From Naegleria gruberi (taxonomy: Eukaryota): DNA of 64,000 nt. Under the pieces are notes generated by a model. That model was not told where the DNA came from, did no database searches, and worked only from the letters and a program-made list of their open reading frames with translations. Positions 1 to 58,068 of this stretch are shown in pieces. Each line of letters starts with the position of its first letter. Position 1 is the first letter of the stretch. Location of the stretch: the NCBI GenBank assembly GCA_000004985.1, contig GG738859.1; one strand, given 5' to 3'. A program made the translations under genes and the position numbers.

Positions 1-408
1 GAATTTGTTAACAAGGTTGTCTCAATTAGTGGGCGTGCAATAGCTCATGCAAGTGAAATTTTGAAACAGGACAGAGAGATAGTGTTAGCTGCTGTTTCTC
101 AAAATGGAAATGCATTGGCTTATGTTAATCATTTTAAGGATGATATGCAAGTGGTACTACGAGCAGTTGAGTCCAATGGTGATTCATTCCAGTTTGCCGA
201 TCCCAAATTACAAGGTGATAAAGAGTTTGTTTTACAGGTTGTGAAACAAAACGCAAAAGCCCTTTTATTTGCATCATCCAAGTTAAAAGCCGATAGGAAT
301 TTTATTTTGAAAATTGTGCAAACTAATGTATTCGCCTACCCTTACATTGGAGAGTACTTTAAAAACGATGAAGAAATTAAAGCAGTTTGGCAAAGTGCAT
401 CTCAATAA
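1..408 (+). CDS. DUF4116-repeat protein, C-terminal part (5' end lies upstream of window)
   Basis: Frame is open from nt 1 and stops with TAA at 406-408. It has three tandem ~35-aa repeats of the DUF4116 type (REIVLAAVSQNGNALAYV / MQVVLRAVESNGDSFQFA / KEFVLQVVKQNAKALLFA). The same repeat family recurs at 24154-25605. Confidence 0.6.
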   Translation, partial: EFVNKVVSISGRAIAHASEILKQDREIVLAAVSQNGNALAYVNHFKDDMQVVLRAVESNGDSFQFADPKLQGDKEFVLQVVKQNAKALLFASSKLKADRNFILKIVQTNVFAYPYIGEYFKNDEEIKAVWQSASQ

Positions 409-3279: not shown

Positions 3280-6200
3280 ATGATTCAATCATCAGCAAGG
3301 AATCTTTCAAAACATTTGATGAGGAGTGGAGGTGTTGCTTTTAAACGTACAACCCTCTCCGAATTGGATAAAAAAGTAATTCTGATTAGACAATTGGTGG
3401 ATAGATTTTATTATTCGCAAAATAGAGAGTTTGGTCAGGATTTGTCCCTTGTTGGATTAAAGAATCAAAAGATTAATTTATCTGCTAACATGATGACAAA
3501 TAGTAGTAGTACGAATAATAATTCACGTTCCTATTCATCTTCTACATCACCATCCGAGAAGAAAATTCTACTTGTCGATGGTACTCCACTTGTTGTGAGA
3601 GCTTACTTTGGAACACCTCCTCTGACTTCGTAAGTGATTTTATTGCTTTTCATCAAATGGTTCGAATAATATACAAATAGATCTAATGGAACTCCAACTA
3701 ATGCAATTTTAACATTTGCAAAGAGTTTAATTGCCATTCTGAAATCGGATGAATTTGATCATGTGGCTATCTTTTTCGATTCTGGAAAACCTTCAATAAG
3801 GAAATCAATTTCATCTGATTATAAGGCAAACAGAAAACCAACTGAAGATGTAAGTTATGACCTAGCTTTAGGAGATTCTTAAAATGTTTAGAATTTGAAA
3901 AAACAATTTCCAATCTGTAAATTATTAGCCGAAAAGATGGGCCTAAAAGTGATAAGCAAGGACGGATTTGAAGCAGATGATCTCATTGCTACAGTAGCCA
4001 GACAAGCAAAGGATGAAAAGTTTAATTCAATTGTTGTGGTTTCCTCTGATAAGGATCTTCACTGCCTTTCGGATACAAATTTAACTCTTCTTGACCCAAT
4101 GACAAAGAAGAAATTAACAATGGACGATATAATTGGAAAGTATGAATTGCCTCCAAAGTTGATTCCAGAGTTTTTGGCACTTGTTGGTGACACTGCAGAC
4201 AATATTAAGGGTGTTAAAGGTATTGGAAAGAAGAAGGCAGTTTCACTGTTGGAACAATATGGATCAATTTCTGAAATTTTGAATAATTTGGACGATGAAA
4301 ATATGGAAAAGAAGTCAAGAGAGGCCATCAAGAGTAATATTGATGACCTTAAATTATCCTTGAGGTTAGTTGCTTTGGACGAAGAAGTTCCTTTGGATTA
4401 TTCTTTACAAGATTTCCAAGTTGACCAATCCTCACTGGATTTTTCACAAAACGAAGAGGTATGTTTATATAATAATGTTCACCATTTACAAACAATCGTC
4501 AGCTCATTAAAATGTTAGAGGATTTGGAAATTAATTCAGTCATTAAACAATTAAAGAAGGAAACAGATAAGAAGGAAAAAACTACAAAATCCAAATCTAA
4601 AAAGAAGGAAGTTATAGAATCTGTTGTACTCAGTGAAGAAATGTCCTCTGCAGATGTAGCCTCCTTAAAATTATCCCACGTCTCGGATGACTCTAAAATT
4701 GGTAAGATTGTCAAAGCATCAGAGTACAATATTATTCTGAATGAGAAAGAGTTAGACTCTTTCATTGAACAGGTGAAGATATCAGGAGTAAGTTTGCAAC
4801 AATTTTCAACATACTGACATAATTTAGAATGTTTGTTTCTCAACGGAAATTTGTCTATTAAGCTTACATAATCCTGTAATGGCTGGTATATCATTCTGCA
4901 TTAGTCCAGGACAAGCATACTATCTTCCATTTTTCAAGGGTGGAAAGGTTGAATTTTTAGATTCTGTAAATATTCTAAAGGAAAGTCCAATACTTTCAAA
5001 GGTTAGGACAGAAATTATGGAAAATCCAAACATTCTCAAGATTGGCCACAATATCAAGTATCATATCAAAATGCTTGCAAACTATGGAGTTACAGGTAAG
5101 TTTTAAATTTATTTATTATTTACTAATATTCAATAGTGAAAAACTTTGACGATATCATGGTAATGTCTTATGTTTTAAATTGTGGTAAACATGGTCATGA
5201 AATGGATGAAATTGTAGAAAATGTCTTGTTACTCGATCCTAAGGAACATATCATTCCAGAGAAAGAAGTGCTTGGCATTGGTAAAAAGAAGGTTACCCTT
5301 ATGGAGGCAGATATTGTCAGTGTTGTTCATTTTGCATGCCAACATGCTGACTTGACTAAACAAGCATATGATGTTTTAAAGTCAGCCCTAGATAAGAGTC
5401 CTAAACTTACTCAATTTTACGAAGGTATCGAAAAACCTCTTGTTGAAACACTTGCAGGTATTGAAATGAAGGGAGTTTTTATGGATGAACCTGCCCTTGT
5501 GAAGATGGAAAACGAATATAGAGAAAAGATCAAAGCCATTGGAAATAAGATAAGAGAAGATGCAGGATATCCAACTATTGATGAAGATATTGAAATCCCT
5601 ACTTCAGAAGAGGAAATTGAAAGTATGATCATTGAAATGGATGAAATGAAACAAGAAGCTTCTGAAGAATTCAATATTAATTCAAATAGACAATTGGGAC
5701 AAGTGATATTCGAAAAATTGGGAATTGGTACAAAGTTAAGAAAAAAGACCAAAGTTGGAGATTATATTTTGAATGCTGAAGTTTTACAAAAACTTGCCGC
5801 AGAAGGACACAGCATTGCCAAGCATATTCTAGAATATAGGGCCTTAACCAAACTCTACAGTACATACATCTCTGGATTAAGACAACATATCAACCCATAC
5901 ACAAAGAGAATTCACACCACTTTCCAAAATGCCCTTACGGTTACTGGTAGATTGAGCTCAGTCATGCCAAACATTCAGAACATTCCTGTCAGAACAGCTG
6001 AAGGTAAACAAATAAGAAGATGTTTCATTTCTCCTTCTGATGATTATGTAATAATGAAGGTCGACTATTCACAGGTAGAGTTGAGAATTTTAGCCCATAT
6101 TGCCAATATTCCAGTGCTTAAGAATGCCTTTAAAGAAAATAAGGACGTTCACGCCATTACAGCCAGTCAAGTTTTCAATGTTCCACTCGATCAGGTCGAT

Positions 6201-6755
6201 AAGTCAACCAGAAATAAGGCCAAGGCCATTAACTTTGGTATTATCTATGGTATGAGTGAATTTGGTTTATCAAAGAGAATTGGAGTAGACACTCAAGCCG
6301 CCAAGTCATTTATTGAACAATACTTTAAGCAATATCCAGGTATTAAGAATTACATGACCAAGACTATTGAATTTTGTAGAAAACATGGTTATGTAAATAC
6401 TCTTTTCAACAGAAGATGTTGGATACCTGGTATTGAGGACCAAGGATTTGGAGGAAAATCATCTTTTGGTGAGAGAACAAGTATCAATACTCCAATCCAA
6501 GGTACCTCAGCTGATATCACAAAGATTGCAATGAACTCATTACACAAGGCATTCCAGGAGAAGGGATTGAGAACCAGAATGATTATTCAAGTTCATGATG
6601 AAATTGTTTTTGAAGTACCAAAGGATGAAGTGGAAACAGTCGAACCAATCATTAAGGAACTCATGGAAGGTGCAGCATTCTTTGGTGGAACAAACTTTAC
6701 GGTGCCACTAACCGTCGAAGCTACAGTTGACTCAAAATGGTTGGCAGATGAATAA
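3280..6755 (+). CDS. family A (bacterial Pol I-type) DNA polymerase with N-terminal 5'-3' exonuclease domain; 6 exons, ~1085 aa; N-terminal presequence
   Basis: Exons are 3280-3629, 3681-3849, 3892-4458, 4503-4787, 4828-5095 and 5137-6755. Introns are 51, 42, 44, 40 and 41 nt with GTAAGT/GTATGT donors, and splice phases are consistent. The N-terminus MIQSSARNLSKHLMRSGGVAFKRTT resembles an organellar presequence. The 5'-3' exonuclease (5' nuclease) domain is indicated by the motifs KKILLVDGTPLVVRAYFG, GFEADDLIATVA and LVGDTADNIKGVKGIGKK. The central region aligns to the Klenow 3'-5' exo domain but has Exo I altered (CFSTEI instead of FDTETD). Polymerase motifs are A DYSQVELRILAHI, B RNKAKAINFGIIYGMS and C QVHDEIVFE. 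An A7 run precedes the ATG. Confidence 0.85.
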
Positions 6756-9974: not shown

Positions 9975-11315
9975 TTAATCGGTCATGTGATCACTAAAGA
10001 AATGTCTTGGAGTATCCTCAAGAACTAAATCTGTGGAAACTGTGCATGTATCTTTGAGGGTGTCATCAATAACTTGTTCCAATTCATCAGTCTTGGTCAT
10101 GGAGAGTGATTTGGTAATATTGGATGCAATCAATTTGACTGTTTCCATACTCTCTGGTGTATTCTTTACATATTGAGCTGTAATGTAGAGGAAAATGCTC
10201 ACAAAATTAAAGTAGATGGCCCAAGGGGACAGATCAGTTGTGAGAGCAAGATACAAATTGGCCACCAAACTCAATATCACTGCAATTTGTTTCTTCATAG
10301 AGTTGGTTTTCATCAACCAGTATGAACTGAGTGTTAATACTGCAGCACACAGAAATTCCTTCCAAATGAGTCCTAATATTCTCCAAATAAAATCTCCTTT
10401 TCGACCCTTTGAGGATGATCGTGATGATGCATTCCTATTACTACTATTAGTATTATTATTTGAATATCGATTGGAATAAATTTGTCTTGAATTTCTAATA
10501 TTTTGCAATAATTCTGATATTTTTCCACTTGGACTTGCAACGTTATCCAGCATGGAGGAGAGTGATCTTGTCTGACCAGTTTTAATATGTTTCAATTGAT
10601 TCAATAATATTCTACTCGTCCTATTTTTTGATGTCAATCCATACTTATTCAATGTTTCAATATTATTTAATAATTTTGATGAAGAATTTGCTGATCCAGT
10701 CAATCCACTAGGTTTGTTATTCTTGAAAATTGAAATATAAGTAAATGGATTCAAAATCGTCCCCTTATTTGAATATGCAAGTTCATAGAGTCTTCTTCCA
10801 ACAGCATATATCGAAATCAAAGTATTACTAACAATTAAAATTCTTCTAGTATATTTAATTGCATAGGAATGACTTTCATCCATCATACTTTCAACAATAA
10901 CTTTTAATTCTTCAATTTCCGATCGTAATTGTTCAATTTCAAAATCTATAAAACTCTTAGATGATGATTGTGCAAGAAGAGGAGAGGGTGAATAGGACCC
11001 GAGTGATGGTGATTGGTCCACCATAGCACCCATCGATGATGATGAACTGAAAGGAGGAATTGAGAGAGGAGTTGTAAATGGTGATGATGAATGCAAAAAA
11101 TTAGAATCCCTCGATGAAGTTCTAAAGTGTGATGATCTCTTGTTACTACTACTTGCACCATTAATACTATTACCACTACTATTACTTGCACCAACAACGG
11201 AGGAAATTAAAGAGTCAATCCCATTGCTACTAGGTGTTCTTTTTATGGTTGAAATGAATTCCTCCTCAATGCTGTCATTCTCTCTGGTTGGCAGAACAGA
11301 TCTGACTTTACGCAT
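9975..11315 (-). CDS. hypothetical S/N-rich protein with central coiled-coil and two C-terminal transmembrane helices (TMCC-like architecture), 446 aa
   Basis: Single ORF with ATG at 11313-11315. Features are an S/N-rich disordered N-terminus, a heptad region (EIEQLRSEIEELKVIVESM), and hydrophobic helices (ILGLIWKEFLCAAVLTLSSYWLM, IAVILSLVANLYLALTT). Confidence 0.45.
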   Translation of the reverse strand: MRKVRSVLPTRENDSIEEEFISTIKRTPSSNGIDSLISSVVGASNSSGNSINGASSSNKRSSHFRTSSRDSNFLHSSSPFTTPLSIPPFSSSSSMGAMVDQSPSLGSYSPSPLLAQSSSKSFIDFEIEQLRSEIEELKVIVESMMDESHSYAIKYTRRILIVSNTLISIYAVGRRLYELAYSNKGTILNPFTYISIFKNNKPSGLTGSANSSSKLLNNIETLNKYGLTSKNRTSRILLNQLKHIKTGQTRSLSSMLDNVASPSGKISELLQNIRNSRQIYSNRYSNNNTNSSNRNASSRSSSKGRKGDFIWRILGLIWKEFLCAAVLTLSSYWLMKTNSMKKQIAVILSLVANLYLALTTDLSPWAIYFNFVSIFLYITAQYVKNTPESMETVKLIASNITKSLSMTKTDELEQVIDDTLKDTCTVSTDLVLEDTPRHFFSDHMTD

Positions 11316-11566: not shown

Positions 11567-13582
11567 ATGCAACAACAACATTACTCTTACAAACAACAAC
11601 AATTTGGAATTTTAATACTCTTAATTTTATTTATTATTAACCTTGTCGGAACTGTAAAATCACAAACCAATTCCACAGATACAATAGATTATGTTGTTAA
11701 TTGGGATAATGTTCCAACAACAGCACCAACAGTTACCAATCCACAACAAAAGTCATTTGGTTCCTGTGTTTGTGATGTAACTTTAAATCAATGTGATGTT
11801 AACTGTTGTTGTGATCCTGATTGCGCATATTCAATAGTAGAAAACTCCTTCTCAAAATGTCTGGTGCCTTACACAAAGAAGGATTTTAATTATTTGTGTG
11901 TCCAAAAAACATTAGTAACTTTTAGTAATTTGAACAATTTGAAAATTTCAACTAAGGAAGTGGTACAAGATGCTGGAACACCTCTTTTTTGTGTTTACTT
12001 TGAAGCAGGTTTGTTTTAACTTTCAACCTATTTTAACATTTTGAAAAAGCCTCTGTTGATGGGTTGTATTATGCTGTTGTTTCCGATTTGGATGCAACAT
12101 CTATTAAGAAGGTATTTGAAAAGTATGAAGCTTTAACTACTTACAGAACTAGCTACACACAAAAGTATATTTATGATGTGGCAGCTGTCAAAACAAACAC
12201 AAGAGTAACTATATTTCAAGATGGTGATAAAATTCCTTACACCATATCGGCTCCTTCAAGCAACACCTCTCAAGTAACTACAGTATCCTATTTCACTTTG
12301 CATAGAAGCTCTAATTCGGATGTTTGTGAAAAAACTTTTGTAAAATTTATGAGAAATAATGGAAAAGAAAATAAGTGTTCATGGATTCCATCAACTTTAG
12401 AAGATTTCAGAACAAAATGTCTAGGAGATTTTAGTGTGAGCTCATTTGTATCGAACTACTTTTCATATGGAGCAGCACCAGATAGCTATTCTCAATACAT
12501 AAAAGTGGAACTTTTGGAAATGATATCAGTAAGTTCAAGTGGTGCAGAAACGGTTCTCTCAACCATTCCAACAACTACCTATGCCTCCCAAACTTGCACA
12601 AATGCTGTAATTGGAGCAAAATATTATTTTGTTTTTACTAGTTCAGGATCAATTTCAAAAGCTTACGTTACCTTAAGAGTCAAAACTCTGGTCAATCCTT
12701 CATTTGTTGAATTGAAATCACAAGTGAACTATATCAATGGGGTACGTTTAAATTTTATGGCTTTTTTCTAACAATAATTCTCAGACTATTTCAGATTTCA
12801 GACAGGGTGTAATCAAACCAAAGAGTGGTAATCCAGGTTATATTCGTAAAAAGCCTGTACTTGCTGGTTACATGGTAACAAACTCGGTAAAGAATGCTAT
12901 CTATCAACACTACTTGGGTCTGACTGCACCAACTGGATATGATTGCAGCTCCAAGAGTAGTATTCTGTTTGATGTGGATGCTGTATTTTCGTGCAGTTTC
13001 ACTTACACTCTTTCACAATTGAAAGCAGCATGTTTGTCAAATACATTTTCCCAATTAGAATCAAATGCCACATATGTAGGAAGATATGGTAATGCTGACT
13101 ATACAAATACTAACGATTGGGTAGCCATAGTAGAAGATTCCAAACCAAGCTCTGTAAGTATTTTTCATATTGTAAATAGTATTAACCCTCATCTAAAGAC
13201 ATGGGACGAACTTACACAAACATGTAATAACATTGCGGCAGGAATCGAATATCAAATTGTTATATCCAAGTCGGGTTCTGTTCAAAACGAGCAATGGAAA
13301 GTGCAAGGCATACAAAGATCTCGTTACTCTCTCACTTGGACCTTCAGTGGGGACAATACGAAAACAAACACTTTTTGGATTGAAACCAGAGTGAAATATG
13401 TAAGAACTGAAAATCAAGAAACCATCCAAAAGAATTATCCAGCTCCTAACTTTTTACCATTCCTTCCAGAAGATGTTTTCTATCCGTTCTCACTCCTCTT
13501 ATCATCCTCTTCTCAACCATATCACTTGATTTCTCTTCTTCCTTTCCTCCTTGTTTCTATTGTTTCAATTTTAGTTTTGTAA
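11567..13582 (+). CDS. TCTN: Tectonic-family (DUF1619) protein, ciliary transition-zone component homolog; 3 exons, ~643 aa; signal peptide and C-terminal hydrophobic anchor
   Basis: Exons are 11567-12008, 12050-12741 and 12785-13582, with 41- and 43-nt introns (GTTTGT and GTACGT donors). The signal peptide is GILILLILFIINLVGTVKS. The Tectonic signature [20 protein letters not shown] (human TCTN1 [20 protein letters not shown]) and KSGNPGYIRKKPVLAGY (human LSGNPGYVVGLPLAAGF) are both present. The C-terminal hydrophobic stretch is LISLLPFLLVSIVSILVL. Confidence 0.7.
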
Positions 13583-13704: not shown

Positions 13705-15600
13705 ATGCCAAGTGATGAACGTGAAGGAAAATACTCATCAACCAACGAGGTAGATAATAACCACTCTGATGAAGTAGAAAATAAATCAAAAATTCCAAAG
13801 TATGACAATGATGAACAAAACCCTTCATCAAATGTAAAAGAATTGGCGGAAAGAGGTAAAAACAAAGTTCTTGAAATGATGATGAAAATGGGCTATAAGG
13901 AAGGAGAAGGTTTAGGTAAATTCGGTCAAGGAAATGCCTCCGTCGTCAATCCACAGGTAAATACAGGTAGAGGAGGTCTCGGAACAATTGATGAAACCTC
14001 TAACTTGTCGAATGTTGTCGAAAGTAGTGATGGAACTTATAAATTACCTTCAAATTTTCAAGTTCAAAGACATGAAGCTGATCCAAAGATTTATAGTCAT
14101 AAGGAAGAATTTGAATGGATTGCATGCAAGGAGGAAAATAGAAAAATCTACTCTGGACCAAATGATCCAATTTACAAAATTGTCAAACCAGAGAGTGATA
14201 ATTTGGATCCATCCAAAATGGCACCAAACGATGCTAATGAAGGACAAAATCCATTCATTGATCCTGAAATTATGAAATCCATTTTCAAAACAAAAGCAGA
14301 CTTTGATGATTTACCACCGAAAATATTCCTCGATGCAAGATTGAGATCTAATCCATATGAAAAAATTGGTAAATCAATCTTTCAAAATAGAGCTGCTGTA
14401 AAATTGGCTAATATTGATTTAGTAACAGATTTGACCAGTGAAACATCCTTGCCAAGACTTGTAGAAGAAAATGGCGTTCTCTATTTTGCAGATATTTGTG
14501 CTGGTCCAGGTGGTTTTACAGAATATTTATACTATAGATATAAAACCTCTAAAGCTAAGGGTTGGGGTTTCACGCTTAAGAATGATAAGGATGATTGGAA
14601 GTTGGAAAAATTCAATAATGAATCTCCATGTTCAAACTTTGAGTTAAATTATGGTGTGGATGGCACAGGTGACATTACCAAAAATGAAAATATGCTTTGT
14701 CTTGATGATGCTGTAAATAGAGGAACAAATAATAGAGGATTGGCACTTGTGACTGCTGATGGAGGATTTTGTGTTGATGGTGTTGAGAACTCTCAAGAAT
14801 ACTTGACACAACAATTAGTTCTTTGCCAATTTTTGACTGCTCTTCTTACTTTGAGAAAGGGGGGATGTTTTGTTTGCAAATTATTCGATTTGAATACCTG
14901 GTTTTCTGCCTCTCTGATATATGTCATGTATCAATACTTTGAAAAGGTTACCATTTTCAAACCATTTTCATCGAGACCAGCAAACTCTGAAAGATACATT
15001 GTTTGCAAGGGAATGACAGAAAGAAAGCCTGAAATTATCAAGTTTCTTCTCCAAGCCAATACCAGACTTTCTGAACGGAAACCAATCAAATCACTTGTTG
15101 ATTGTGATGTAATGACTTCTGATAAGGAATTTGCTCAATTTATGACCACCTCTAATAATACCTTCTCAGAAAATCAAGATTATAATTTGAAACGATTGAA
15201 AATGGCAATTGAAGATAGGTATATTGATATTAAGGATCTTCAATACCAACTTCAACAATCATGTCTAAAAGAGTGGAATTTACCTGAATCAAGATCCAGA
15301 TCGTATAATAAGAGATCTTATGATAATTATAGAGGTAATAGGTCATATGACAGAGACAGGAATTATAGTGGTGGACGTGGAGGTTATGGTGGAAATCGTG
15401 ATAACAACAGATATGATAACAGAAATAATGATAGCAGATATGATAGACATGACAGAAGGGATAACAATGATTATTACAACAATAATGGTAGAAGCAATAA
15501 TAGTCGTAACTATGGAAGAGTAAATAATCATGACGACAGATATGAAAGAAGAGATTCCCATCATTCAAATTCATACAGAAATGACAGACATTACAGATAA
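13705..15600 (+). CDS. cap-specific mRNA ribose 2'-O-methyltransferase-like protein (G-patch + FtsJ/RrmJ methyltransferase, CMTR1-like) with R/D/N/Y-rich C-terminal tail, 631 aa
   Basis: Single ORF with ATG at 13705 after an A9 run. The G-patch is MMKMGYKEGEGLGKFGQGNASVVNPQVNTGRGGLG. The SAM-methyltransferase motif I is YFADICAGPGGFTEY and the fold is RrmJ-like. The last ~100 aa are RSYDNYRGNRSYDRDRNYSGGRGGYGGNRDNNRYDNRNN... low complexity. Confidence 0.7.
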   Translation: MPSDEREGKYSSTNEVDNNHSDEVENKSKIPKYDNDEQNPSSNVKELAERGKNKVLEMMMKMGYKEGEGLGKFGQGNASVVNPQVNTGRGGLGTIDETSNLSNVVESSDGTYKLPSNFQVQRHEADPKIYSHKEEFEWIACKEENRKIYSGPNDPIYKIVKPESDNLDPSKMAPNDANEGQNPFIDPEIMKSIFKTKADFDDLPPKIFLDARLRSNPYEKIGKSIFQNRAAVKLANIDLVTDLTSETSLPRLVEENGVLYFADICAGPGGFTEYLYYRYKTSKAKGWGFTLKNDKDDWKLEKFNNESPCSNFELNYGVDGTGDITKNENMLCLDDAVNRGTNNRGLALVTADGGFCVDGVENSQEYLTQQLVLCQFLTALLTLRKGGCFVCKLFDLNTWFSASLIYVMYQYFEKVTIFKPFSSRPANSERYIVCKGMTERKPEIIKFLLQANTRLSERKPIKSLVDCDVMTSDKEFAQFMTTSNNTFSENQDYNLKRLKMAIEDRYIDIKDLQYQLQQSCLKEWNLPESRSRSYNKRSYDNYRGNRSYDRDRNYSGGRGGYGGNRDNNRYDNRNNDSRYDRHDRRDNNDYYNNNGRSNNSRNYGRVNNHDDRYERRDSHHSNSYRNDRHYR

Positions 15601-19144: not shown

Positions 19145-19263
19145 GGCTACGGCCATATCACGATGAATGCACCTCATCCCGTCCGATTTGAGAAGTTAAG
19201 CATCGTCGAGCCACATCAGTACTGAGGTTGGAGACAACTTGGGAACCTGTGGTGCTGTAGTCT
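19145..19263 (+). rRNA. 5S ribosomal RNA gene (single copy in window, dispersed)
   Basis: The gene reads GGCTACGGCCATATCACGATGAATGCACCTCATCCCGTCCGATTTGAGAAGTTAAGCATCGTCGAGCCACATCAGTACTGAGGTTGGAGACAACTTGGGAACCTGTGGTGCTGTAGTC. The 5' and 3' ends pair to form helix I. Conserved box A and box C-like internal elements are present (CCGATCTCGTCTGATCTCGGAAGCTAAGC-type; GGGAGACC...GGGAA). Confidence 0.85.
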
Positions 19264-24153: not shown

Positions 24154-25605
24154 ATGTTTCAAAATCTTCACGAGCAAGGGATAACAATTATTCTCGATGA
24201 TCAAATTGGATCGGAGAGGCTTTCTTTTAAATATAACCTCTCTCGATTCTATAATTTAGTAGTACATTTCACAGAGACAGCTCCAACACTGGCAACATTA
24301 TTGGAGGATGAACCCGAATTATTGCTAGAATCGATGAAGAGTTCTTCGACACCATTCATTCCCGATCAATATAAGAATGATTTAAATTTTCTGAGGAAGG
24401 CCTGTCGAATGAATTGTAGTTTGATAACAAATAATGATTTAATGCAAAATGATAAAGAGTGCTGCTTGATTACAGCATCTCAAAAAGGAGGTAAATTATT
24501 GCATTGTTGCAAAATCAAAGATCTAGATGTGATATTGCAAGCTTTCAAAGTTAATCCAAATGATATTTCATTCACATACGGATCAATGTTAATTAACACT
24601 CAAGAATATCAGGAATGGAAGAAACTGCAGGAACAGAAAAAAATTGCGCCAACCCACAAGACCAATCATAAAAAGGAAATTTTGGATGAAAAAGAAATAG
24701 TTCTCAATTCAGTTAATAAGAACGGAATGAACTTGAGAAAATTCCCATCATTTGCTTTGGATAGAGATGTTGTTCTAGCAGCCATAAAACAAAATGGTAC
24801 CATATTCCAAACAATTGATGAAAAGTGGAAAGAAGATTTGGAAATTGTGAGTACTGCAATAGATTCTGATCCCATGAATTTAAAATTCCTTCCAAATCAT
24901 TTCAAAAGTGACAGATCATTAGTGATGAAAGCAGTAACCAGCAATGGATTTGCTCTAAAATTTGCTGGTTCATCATTCCAAAGAGACAAGCAAATTGTTC
25001 TTTCCTCATTCACAAGTAATGGAAAAGCTGTAGAATTTGTACACAAGAGCCTGTGGTTAGATGAGGAAATTGTGAGATGTGCTTCTAGAAAAACTGGAAG
25101 ATGTCTATTTCATGCAAGTGAATGCATTAAATCCAATAAGGAACTAGCTCTCCAAATCATTCAAAAATTCCCAGAAGGATTCACCTACTTGAGTAATAGT
25201 TTGAAAACAGATAGGGACTTTATCTTATCAGCAATAGAGAAGAACCATTTAATTCTCTATCAAATCAGCCCCTTATTGAAACAAGATAACTCATTTCTAA
25301 TAGATGCCCTCAAACGAAACTCACTCATCTTTCCCAATTTACCTGAGAGTTTCCGATACGACCCCAATATGATCATTCTATCCTGCAAGAATTCTACTCA
25401 ACATCTGACATCTTTTCTGTATTACAAACAATCGCTCAGTCATAACTTTGACTTTGCATTACAATGTACTCAAATGAATGGTTCAGCTCTCAATTGCTTT
25501 AGTGATTTTTCACATAACGAGTTAAAATTACTTGCACTTGCTGCAGCTTCATCTTTCTTTCATCAGAAACACCCAAATTTTAAATTGCTTCTTCGTGATG
25601 ATTAG
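24154..25605 (+). CDS. DUF4116-repeat protein, 483 aa
   Basis: Single ORF with at least 7 tandem ~36-aa repeats (EKEIVLNSVNKNGMNLRKFP / DRDVVLAAIKQNGTIFQTI / DLEIVSTAIDSDPMNLKFL / DRSLVMKAVTSNGFALKFA / DKQIVLSSFTSNGKAVEFV ...). It belongs to the same family as the partial gene at 1-408. Confidence 0.65.
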   Translation: MFQNLHEQGITIILDDQIGSERLSFKYNLSRFYNLVVHFTETAPTLATLLEDEPELLLESMKSSSTPFIPDQYKNDLNFLRKACRMNCSLITNNDLMQNDKECCLITASQKGGKLLHCCKIKDLDVILQAFKVNPNDISFTYGSMLINTQEYQEWKKLQEQKKIAPTHKTNHKKEILDEKEIVLNSVNKNGMNLRKFPSFALDRDVVLAAIKQNGTIFQTIDEKWKEDLEIVSTAIDSDPMNLKFLPNHFKSDRSLVMKAVTSNGFALKFAGSSFQRDKQIVLSSFTSNGKAVEFVHKSLWLDEEIVRCASRKTGRCLFHASECIKSNKELALQIIQKFPEGFTYLSNSLKTDRDFILSAIEKNHLILYQISPLLKQDNSFLIDALKRNSLIFPNLPESFRYDPNMIILSCKNSTQHLTSFLYYKQSLSHNFDFALQCTQMNGSALNCFSDFSHNELKLLALAAASSFFHQKHPNFKLLLRDD

Positions 25606-54021: not shown

Positions 54022-57000
54022 TTAAATTGTAGGAGGGTTTACATTTTCGAAAGATTCAAATGCTACAATTTCATCCATAACAAGCCAATAAAATGTAATA
54101 CCAAAGAAATCTCTCATTTTCCTCTTCTTATTGTCATTTCTTACAGCAATATAGAAAACTGTGGCAACTGCTTGTCTTGGAAATACTTTACTCTCATAGT
54201 CGTCCAATACTTCAACTGCCTTGTCATGATAATATTTGGTGAAATGTTTAACAATTTCACTAATTTCCAATTTTAGTTTGTAATGGTTCTTTCCACATCT
54301 GACCTCTAATTCCTTTGTATTGAAAAATCCTCCTAATAATTCAACTTCTGATGAGACAAAGTATTGTTGCATGAGCTTTCTCAAATCTGATTTGTACTCT
54401 TCATAAATTTCTAATGCTGCATTGTAGGCGTGCATTATATTTTCATCAAAATAATCCCAGTCGTCATCTATGAGCATTGTTTTGAGATTAGGAAGTTTGA
54501 TAAAGACAGCATCTAAAATTTCAAGATGAGGATCCAGTTTTATCTCTTGAATAGAATCTAGAATGCCAAGCTTTTTTCCGTGAACTGTTTTTTCAAAAAA
54601 GACAGCCTTATCATAAATACTTCCAATAACATCTTCAGAGTGATATGTTTTCTTACCAAAAACTCTTGGCATATAGTGAGGTCTACTGTTGGAGAAAAGT
54701 TCAGTAGGAAGTGGTTTTCTGACACCAGTTTTGGCATAGTCAACTTGATAACTGTGGTGTTTGGCCAATTTCAAACAAGGTTCACTTCTTAGCCCATCCC
54801 CCTCCTTATCGTAATGTTCCAAATGCAAGAATGCAACAACACCAAGGTTGTCATTAATAATGTACTCTGTTAAGAATTCTCTAATAACTCGATAGTCACA
54901 TCCGTCGTGCTTTTCTTCAGGTGGAAGTCCCTCATAATTCATTGGGGGATATTCCTCAAAATTAACTAGGAGTGGATCCCAAAATACTTGGAAAAAGTCG
55001 CCGTCATAGTCGCCTCCACTCATTTTGTTAGCTGCAGGTCTATTGCCTTTTTGGCTGAATACAATTACATCTCTAAGGTGTGATAATTTGCTAATCTTTT
55101 CTGGATCTGTAACAGCTTTGAACTTTCTAATGTCACCAGGGTGAAGGCATGGTGATCTTGTAATTGCTACAGTTCCACTCAAAGTGCCACCATTCACAAA
55201 ACAATTGTCATCATAAAGATCAGAGTCAGAGTTTTCCAATTCAGAAAGTTGGATAAATACTTCATCCTCTTCCAACACTCCATAAAAGTCCACAACTCCC
55301 ATCAATAAAAGAGCCTTGTCAAGAATAATTCTACCATTCTTGAGATCATTCAATCTGTTTCTGATCAAACTATCCTTGATATTGCAAAATACTGGTTCTA
55401 TTTGGTAAAAGAATTTAATGTCCTCTCCCGATTGCACAACTTTAGAAAAGTCGTATTGAGAATCCAAATAGTTGAGAGAGGCCACTTTCTTCATATTCTT
55501 TCCAACGATATTATCTTGTGATTTTCTCAACACTCTCCTCATATACTTCTTATCATTAAATAACTTTTTGATTTCTTCAAGATCTCTATCGAGTAGTTGT
55601 AAAAATACCGAATCTGATACCTTATTGGAACTCAATAAAGCAATCAATTGTCTATTCAAACTAGCAAATCTATTTCTTTTCGAGTAAGTAATCAGTTCAA
55701 ACTCGCTACTGGAGGAATCTATGAACTTTTCCTGACTCTTAGATAGGAGAAGATCCAAATCTGAATATAAATGAATATCAGGATCTACAACAACAACTCC
55801 CTTCAACCCTCCCATACGAAATTGGAATGCTGATGGTATGTATTCTTTGCCAGCAAATGAGATTTGGAATTTCTTGGTTAATTCTACAGCAAATTCTAGT
55901 GATATTCTTCCTACACCATCTGTAAACACATAATTGTTTCTGGTAATGTCTGGAATAATTTCATACTCTTTTGAGATGCCTTCATACGTGTGTGAAAAGC
56001 ATTGTCCAATTCTTGCTGCATACCTTGCTTTAACTTTGATATGAGAAAAATTACCAAGAGAATTGATAATATTTCTTGGGGTGAAACTTCCATTCGAATA
56101 AACGAACCAAGAACTGGAACATTGTTAGAAATGTTTGAAATAATATAAGACGTACCTGTGGGCTCTAAGTTGACTGGTAGAATAAGCAAGCATTTCATAT
56201 TTTCTGTTAAAAACTAGAAGGCCCTTCTTTAGCACAATCTCAATTCTCTCATGCAAGTTTGTAAATTTTTCAGCACTAAGTTTATGAAGATCTTCATCGC
56301 AGAATGTGATTCTCAAAAAGTGATCTTCATTCTTTTCCTTATATTTTCTCAAAACTCTATTACCACCCTCAACTGATTTGTCAAAAAATCTCCAACCTGT
56401 TGGTGTAATCATTACTTTACGAATATTGAAAAAGTTTGTATCAAAATCAATGAATGCCGTGTCATTATGTTTCAATTTTTGATCAGCTAACCGTTGATTG
56501 AAATGTTCTAGGAATTCAGATGGATAGATGTTTTTCTCATTCAATACTTCTCTCATGGCACGGTCAACCATTTCATAGTCATGATCTTTGTTAATATATC
56601 TTGTAATAGTGTCCACTATTGCTTCCAATCTTTCTCTATTGTGTAGAATTCCTGGTATCTTAGTATCTAAGCAAAACAGCAAATATACTGTATTGAAGGA
56701 AAAATTATGAAACAATGGAAAGTCCAAGCTTTCATCATATTGGAATGTATCGATTTGCTTCCTTTTGATTTTCTTATCTCTCATTACCAAAGGATATGGA
56801 TAATTATGACCCTTCAGTAGGGAACTCACATCAGATGAAACAGTGAGCAGTAGAGATCTACCCCATCTGAAATTGTTCAACCACATGGATGATATGCTAT
56901 CTTGTTGTGAATAGTCAGGAGCTGCCATTCTTGTACGAAATGCTTCATCAGGCCTCTTACGGTAGATGAATGGCACATTTCTAAGTTCAATGGCTAATTC

Positions 57001-58068
57001 TGTGACACCAACAATAACACGTCTCACATTCTCTCGCTTAATGTCCATCCAATAGTCATGATTAGAGTTGAATGTTGCTTGTAATTTAATATCACCAGTT
57101 GCAGACCAGTATACTAATGATACCTTTCTCTCCAATAATCCATGTCCTACTTGTTCCTTATTTACACATAAAAATGTTTCATGCTTATTGTCATCAAAAT
57201 TACCAATCTCCATATTTATCCAGTTTAACTCCACTGACCCATACTCCACTAAATCATTGGGTTTTTCAGATTTGGTTGTTGATTTTGATGATGTTACACT
57301 TTCTTCAATTATTACAGGTGGTCCAATAATCTGCACAGGTTGTTTCTTCTTTTCTTTGGCCTTATCCTTCTTTTGAGTTGGTTCCTTCTTTTCCTTTGGT
57401 TTTAGACTGGGAAAGTTATTTTCATTATCAAGGGCCACAGGTTTTGGTGGCTGATTGACAATTACAGGTTGATGAATATTGGTAACTGGTGGATTGTGAA
57501 TTCTATCATTATCATTCCTCCTATAATTGTTATTTCCTCCTTTATAATTATTATTGTCTCCTCTTTGCTCTTTATATTCTCGATTATTATTATTTCCTGA
57601 ATATTCCCTATGCTTACTCGATTTATCATTGTTATCATTGAAATTATTATTATTATTGTAATTATTATTTCCTCTATATTCTCTATTGTTGTTGCCATTA
57701 CGCGAGTATCTATCATTATTATCATTGTAATTCTTCTGATAATTATTATTGTAATTGTAATTATTATTTTGATAATAGCGATTAGGAGGAGGCTTCTTGC
57801 TATTATCATAACTGCTACCATTACTCGGATTGATTAAATCACCAGTAGTATTATTAATTATATAATTTCTCGCTTTGTTTTGTTGATAAAAAGCCTTTTT
57901 CTGAGATGATTCGGAAACATGTTCCTCTGAATCATTAATTATTAATTCCTCTTCATTATGATGAGAACTACTACTACTACTACTACTTGCTCCACCATTC
58001 CTAGTACTACTTGCTCCTCTATAAATCTGATAATGTTGCTGATTTGTCTTTTGATTGGGATTAAACAT
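54022..58068 (-). CDS. eukaryotic cellular RNA-dependent RNA polymerase (RDR family, RNAi pathway); 2 exons, ~1334 aa
   Basis: On the minus strand the exons are 56156-58068 and 54022-56113, with a 42-nt intron (GTACGT donor, ccag acceptor) and consistent phase. The catalytic signature SGGDYDGDFFQVFWD is the DxDGD motif of the RDR double-psi barrel. An extended RdRP core follows. The first ~200 aa are an N/Y/R-rich low-complexity region. Confidence 0.9.

Follow-up and report, generated by a model that had tools for sequence, protein, structure and literature searches.

Our analysis identifies, in a 64,000-nucleotide stretch of contig GG738859.1 from the Naegleria gruberi assembly GCA_000004985.1 (hereafter the window), a gene on the forward strand at 11567..13582 (+) that, judged by its domains and its relatives, is a true homolog of the Tectonic (TCTN) family of ciliary transition-zone proteins. 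The gene runs from an ATG at 11567 to a TAA stop at 13580-13582 and encodes a protein of 628 aa. We consider it highly likely, with a probability of roughly 0.88, that this is the single-copy Tectonic gene of N. gruberi and that, by homology, its product would serve in flagellar membrane gating as part of the MKS module, a role that we infer from the Tectonics of mouse, C. elegans and Chlamydomonas. An earlier note on this DNA, made from the letters of the sequence, had named the gene a Tectonic homolog, and this identification stands: both Pfam models of the family are passed, and, of the named relatives from other genera, the nearest are tectonic-1 and tectonic-3-like proteins of animals and a chytrid Tectonic-1.

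The family assignment is carried first by two Pfam domains. The earlier note had proposed a search with the DUF1619 and TCTN hidden Markov models, and this search places both domains above the curated gathering cut-off, which is 22 bits for PF25752 as well as for PF07773:

11708..12054, + strand: PF25752 (DUF1619_N), residues 48-149, 43.1 bits, E 6.9e-11, spanning intron 1
12851..13402, + strand: PF07773 (TCTN_DUF1619), the second beta-rich domain, residues 401-569, 32.3 bits, E 1.6e-7

The PF07773 match spans intron 3 and covers profile positions 9-153 of 155. A homology search against 5.8 billion clustered proteins returned 29 matches, all of which carry PF25752 and/or PF07773; those that are named are tectonic-1 or tectonic-3-like, and the rest are labelled hypothetical or are unnamed. 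Within the genus, the N. lovaniensis ortholog shares 55% identity with 98% of the query covered and the N. fowleri ortholog 54%, the coverage for the two being 96-98% of the length. Outside it, Saccoglossus tectonic-1 is matched at E 8.5e-21, and further matches include a Pecten tectonic-3-like protein, vertebrate tectonic-1 proteins, chytrid proteins (one of them named Tectonic-1) and a Symbiodinium Tectonic-1. Every named match comes from a lineage with ciliated or flagellated stages, and the protein is the sole one of Tectonic type found for N. gruberi by the homology search and exact sequence look-up. A Cys-rich, low-complexity protein might be supposed to resemble the DUF1619 models by chance, and the score of the second Pfam match is indeed modest (32.3 bits). 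Such an accident is set against two independent models that exceed their curated cut-offs, the E-value to Saccoglossus tectonic-1 in a database of this size (5.8 billion sequences), and conserved columns distributed over the entire length of the protein. Based on the Pfam scores, the homolog E-values and these columns, we regard a chance match to DUF1619 as excluded, its probability being close to nil.

The conserved columns include two motifs that the earlier note had quoted, and a regular-expression match locates both of them in the protein:

11765..11824, + strand: Cys-rich signature of 20 residues, residues 67-86
12824..12871, + strand: SGNPGY block SGNPGYIRKKPVLAGY, residues 392-407

In a six-frame translation of the whole 64-kb window, CCCDPDC and SGNPGY occur once each. 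Conservation was read from two alignments, A1 with 7 sequences and A2 with 23 sequences, both of which contain animal tectonic-1 proteins. Across these alignments C67, C69, D70, C76, D77, C80-C82, D83 and C86 of the signature are invariant or at least 90% conserved, and in A2 the residues G393, P395, G396, Y397 and P402 of the block are invariant, while more cysteines, spread along the whole length, are also invariant or at least 90% conserved. The signature residues are invariant, or nearly so, across homologs from Naegleria, animals, chytrids and other protists. With the Tectonic family (vertebrate TCTN1/2/3, C. elegans TCTN-1, Chlamydomonas TCTN1), the Naegleria protein shares both Pfam domains, the Cys-rich CxCD... 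signature and the SGNPGY...P.LAG block, and N. gruberi has one gene per genome, as do most non-vertebrates. It differs from the family in the extent of its divergence, being only 19-26% identical to its non-Naegleria relatives in A2.

The exon count is the sole error of observation in the earlier note, which had described a three-exon gene. On the evidence of homologs and database records, the gene consists of four exons, with intron 3 spliced:

11567..12008, + strand: exon 1, codons 1-147 and the first base of codon 148, with a GT donor at 12009
12009..12049, + strand: intron 1, 41 nt, GT..AG, needed for joining the reading frames
12050..12741, + strand: exon 2, whose spliced product agrees with the RefSeq protein
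12742..12784, + strand: intron 2, 43 nt, GT..AG, obligatory for frame joining
12785..13153, + strand: exon 3, whose spliced product agrees with the RefSeq protein
13154..13198, + strand: intron 3, 45 nt, GTAAGT..AG, in frame and stop-free
13199..13582, + strand: exon 4, including the TAA stop

Exon 1 covers the signal-like N-terminus together with the greater part of the Cys-rich DUF1619_N domain, and all three introns are very short (41, 43 and 45 nt). Because intron 3 is in frame and without a stop codon, reading of the open reading frames (ORFs) alone cannot decide whether it is spliced; if retained, it would supply 15 extra residues, VSIFHIVNSINPHLK. When the product is aligned with six homologs, a 15-residue gap falls at exactly VSIFHIVNSINPHLK in all six of them. 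Exact sequence look-up finds the four-exon product of 628 aa to be identical to RefSeq XP_002679001.1, and the same kind of look-up finds no database record for the 643-aa read-through product of a three-exon gene. The homolog gap, together with the 628-aa product on record, therefore points to four exons, and the three-exon model is ruled out by the homologs gapped at this 45-nt in-frame intron and by a 643-aa product that is not on record. As this case illustrates, short introns that keep the reading frame escape an analysis that goes by ORFs only. The two orthologs from sister species, N. lovaniensis C9374_014165 and that of N. fowleri, have the same domain order and are without the 15 residues of intron 3, and they differ from the N. 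gruberi protein in their signal region and anchor sequences, which have diverged.

The stop-free 45-nt intron 3 could be read through, and this is the one feature that would speak for a decaying or non-functional gene copy, whose motifs would be relics that tell little of current biology; the gene structure and its conservation lend such a reading nothing. All 628 codons can be read without interruption, the three introns are canonical (GT..AG), every signature residue is kept, and the identity of 54-55% to two other Naegleria species extends over nearly the full length, with the hydrophobic termini conserved. We judge decay to be very improbable.

The anatomy of the predicted protein was examined by Kyte-Doolittle hydropathy in 15-aa windows with a threshold mean of at least 1.8. 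Windows that reach this threshold start only at residues 10-18 (means 2.0-3.2) and at residues 609-614 (means 2.1-2.9), and they mark two terminal features:

11567..11659, + strand: predicted signal peptide region MQQQHYSYKQQQFGILILLILFIINLVGTVKS, residues 1-31, from hydropathy
13526..13579, + strand: putative C-terminal hydrophobic anchor LISLLPFLLVSIVSILVL, residues 611-628, from hydropathy, ending at the stop codon

The hydropathy profile places the hydrophobic core of the first at about residues 13-28, followed by the small residues VGTVKS, and Tectonics are described as bearing a signal peptide (PMC4635004). The second, LISLLPFLLVSIVSILVL, is directly preceded by SSSSQPYH, and hydrophobic C-terminal tails are also present in the N. 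lovaniensis and N. fowleri orthologs. These two terminal segments fit a signal peptide and a C-terminal anchor, the N-terminus being signal-like as in the Tectonic family and the tail resembling that of the membrane-anchored members. A difference from the family is that the Naegleria tail stops exactly at the C-terminus after a Ser-rich stretch, and on this ground a glycosylphosphatidylinositol (GPI)-attachment signal is as plausible as a tail transmembrane helix. Taken together with the two terminal hydrophobic segments, the 18 cysteines and 4 N-glycosylation sequons of the sequence fit an extracellular protein.

The Tectonic identity of this N. gruberi gene is already known, having been both annotated and published. 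Its product is XP_002679001.1 / EFC46257.1, locus NAEGRDRAFT_65759, and appears in UniProt as D2VA72, "Uncharacterized protein FM153"; the notion that the gene is unannotated in N. gruberi is ruled out by the exact look-up that finds the RefSeq protein XP_002679001.1. This identical protein is missing from the matches of the homology search, where a 236-aa ENA fragment stands in for its 90%-identity cluster, and a cluster representative that hides the RefSeq protein in this way can falsely make a gene look unannotated. The FM label would denote a flagellar-motility gene set from the paper on the N. gruberi genome (Fritz-Laylin et al. 2010, Cell), a set that reportedly comprises genes conserved only in flagellated eukaryotes. 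A literature search on the name 'FM153' returned nothing relevant. Naegleria gruberi stands among the aligned Tectonic1 orthologs in S1 Fig of Yee et al. 2015 (PLoS Genet, PMC4635004), and a machine-read segment of that figure, starting from Naegleria position 611 and reading 'LISLPPFLVSIIVSILVL', matches residues 611-628 barring errors of optical character recognition.

From the near-complete restriction of Tectonics to organisms that build cilia, the earlier note had concluded that the DNA comes from a ciliated or flagellated source, and the literature bears this out. Transition-zone complex proteins are restricted to ciliated organisms, with a single TCTN within the conserved transition-zone core (Barker et al. 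2014, PMC4092220), and N. gruberi is a classic amoeboflagellate that assembles its basal bodies and flagella de novo (review, PMC3144413). Two protein identities confirm N. gruberi as the source of the DNA, that of the gene product with XP_002679001.1 and that of 24334-25605 with XP_002679005.1, and the Tectonic record belongs to the same scaffold of 530,355 bp.

If the Naegleria protein acts as its better-studied relatives do, it would enter the endoplasmic reticulum and the secretory pathway, where it would be N-glycosylated and disulfide-bonded. It would then reach the flagellar transition zone and sit on the outside of the membrane, to which a GPI anchor or a tail helix would tether it. 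There it would join the MKS/B9/Tectonic module, which would slow the lateral diffusion of membrane proteins and thereby help to keep the composition of the flagellar membrane distinct. In Naegleria, the protein would be needed only during the differentiation from amoeba to flagellate. Precedents come from other organisms. In the mouse, Tctn1 is glycosylated and extracellular, and the tectonic complex hinders membrane proteins from diffusing passively across the transition zone, where the ciliary necklace persists without this complex (PMC10500017); a later paper (PMC12119803) cites that work as showing loss of the necklace, which is at odds with the source text. The same later paper reports that TMEM67 is required for keeping TCTN1-3 at the transition zone (PMC12119803). 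In C. elegans, TCTN-1 is found at transition zones and acts redundantly with the NPHP module in ciliogenesis (PMC4635004), and Chlamydomonas TCTN1 is located at the ciliary base, with its full length needed for normal cilia and for mutant rescue (PMC12723291).

The same architecture could belong to a surface or secreted glycoprotein with DUF1619 domains that acts outside the flagellum, for example in adhesion or signalling at the amoeba surface; membership of the family would then say nothing of a transition-zone role in Naegleria. A Cys-rich, glycosylated, membrane-anchored ectodomain is generic, and Barker et al. 2014 (PMC4092220) point out that proteins of the transition zone may also act outside the cilium. 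We nevertheless think such a role improbable for this protein, which is the sole one of Tectonic type found for N. gruberi and belongs to a family restricted to ciliated organisms (PMC4092220), with named matches that all come from lineages with ciliated or flagellated stages. The UniProt name FM153, with its probable link to flagellar motility, also speaks against it.

Some points weigh against our preferred reading of the gene as a Tectonic of the flagellar transition zone. Our Pfam scan of about 55 ORFs and open frames across the 64-kb window found no other recognisably ciliary gene, though this absence is uninformative either way, because clustering of ciliary genes is not known from eukaryotes. 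All of the mechanistic steps proposed above are drawn by homology from non-Naegleria relatives of only 19-26% identity. The predicted cleavage of the signal peptide and the choice between a GPI anchor and a transmembrane helix are read from hydropathy alone. Finally, the presence of a transition-zone protein is no guarantee of a transition-zone role (Barker et al. 2014, PMC4092220).

Beyond the family assignment, structure prediction and profile comparison bring out an internal repeat in the body of the protein. An AlphaFold2 model of the full protein has a mean predicted local distance difference test (pLDDT) score of 67.8, with the Cys-rich N-terminal third poorly modelled, a confident beta-rich body at residues ~200-570 and a terminal helix at 610-627. 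Modelled separately, residues 200-572 reach a mean pLDDT of 83.5. When the two halves of alignment A3, residues ~200-387 and 388-572, are compared by hhalign, they match with a probability of 96.5% and E 1e-9 over 154 columns, and from this half-versus-half match we conclude that the beta-rich body (12205-13402, residues ~200-572) is an internal tandem duplication of a domain of ~185 aa. Its first copy adds one feature to those above:

12205..12811, + strand: first beta-rich domain, internal duplicate of the Tectonic domain, residues ~200-387, from hhalign and AlphaFold2, spanning intron 2

The Pfam model PF07773 detects only the second copy of the duplicated domain, and the first beta domain alone has no Pfam match even at E<=10.

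The fold of this body offers a further lead. Searches of the PDB with the protein and with a profile of A2 found no sequence-related solved structure (for A2, none at E<=10). All three fold searches rank human Meckelin/TMEM67 (PDB 7fh1) first, with a Foldseek E of 3.8e-3 and probability of 0.94. This score is marginal and was not improved by a cleaner query, and for these reasons we treat the likeness to Meckelin only as a lead. The resemblance, which is to another extracellular MKS-module protein, is weak and at the level of fold. In contrast to Meckelin, the Naegleria protein is without a seven-transmembrane domain and without a coiled coil, and there is no detectable sequence similarity between the two (profile A2 against PDB sequences at E<=10, and Pfam). 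Nor does it appear to be a member of the Meckelin family, as there is no Pfam Meckelin match at E<=1 and the hydrophobic segments are only two, both terminal. The authors of the Meckelin structure describe its beta-sheet-rich domain as one not characterised before, and make no mention of Tectonic (PMC8565905). That the top fold match of the modelled body should be another extracellular protein of the MKS module is suggestive. It could be that the Tectonic body arose through an ancient tandem duplication and that the duplicated beta-rich domain of ~185 aa is remotely homologous to the beta-sheet-rich ectodomain of Meckelin/TMEM67, a proposal that we put forward tentatively and on balance doubt.

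In its genomic setting, the Tectonic gene has close neighbours on both sides. The one upstream, at a distance of 251 bp, is a divergent ORF (9975-11315, -), and a gene with G-patch and FtsJ methyltransferase domains (13705-15600, +) begins 122 bp past the Tectonic stop codon; the latter has an architecture like that of a cap 2'-O-methyltransferase and ends in a long N/R/D/Y-rich low-complexity tail. The Pfam families found elsewhere in the window are family-A DNA polymerase with 5'-3' exonuclease, SET/AWS, ATP synthase delta/epsilon, MYST acetyltransferase, GINS Sld5, NS endonuclease, RCC1, DUF4116, saccharopine dehydrogenase, TTC4, RNase PH, COPA, ribosomal L10e, HORMA, UTP15, RMC1, metallophosphatase, RNA-dependent RNA polymerase (RdRP), RGS, EF-G-like GTPase, Ras, PUB, RING, dienelactone hydrolase and flavodoxin. 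The DNA polymerase, of bacterial type and with 5'-3' exonuclease domains, occupies two open frames at 3895-6755 (+), where DNA_pol_A scores 481 bits, and is probably an intron-containing gene for an organelle-targeted PolI-like polymerase. Two adjoining open frames at 54022-58068 (-) match the eukaryotic RdRP model PF05183, at profile positions 1-91 and then 162-581, and are probably one RdRP gene split by an intron. Two DUF4116 repeat proteins are encoded in the window, at 1-405 (+) and at 24154-25605 (+). The ORF of the second contains XP_002679005.1 with 100% identity over 423 residues (24334-25605), and this RefSeq model has its start 60 codons past the earliest in-frame ATG of that frame. 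A lone 5S ribosomal RNA gene lies between protein-coding genes at 19145-19263 (+) (Rfam RF00001, 105 bits, full length), and no transfer RNA genes were found anywhere in the 64-kb window.

This gene rightly marks the DNA as coming from a flagellum-building eukaryote. The source can be named directly as N. gruberi, and the flagellate stage of this species is textbook knowledge. Beyond confirming the source, the finding matters little, and it serves as a positive control for the motif-based reading of raw sequence. Its forward-looking value lies only in the domain duplication and the weak likeness of fold to Meckelin, which bear on the still-unannotated function of DUF1619 (PMC12723291). If the proposed relationship to Meckelin is true, the extracellular parts of the MKS module would go back to one ancestor, and they might also assemble in a shared way on the outside of the ciliary membrane.
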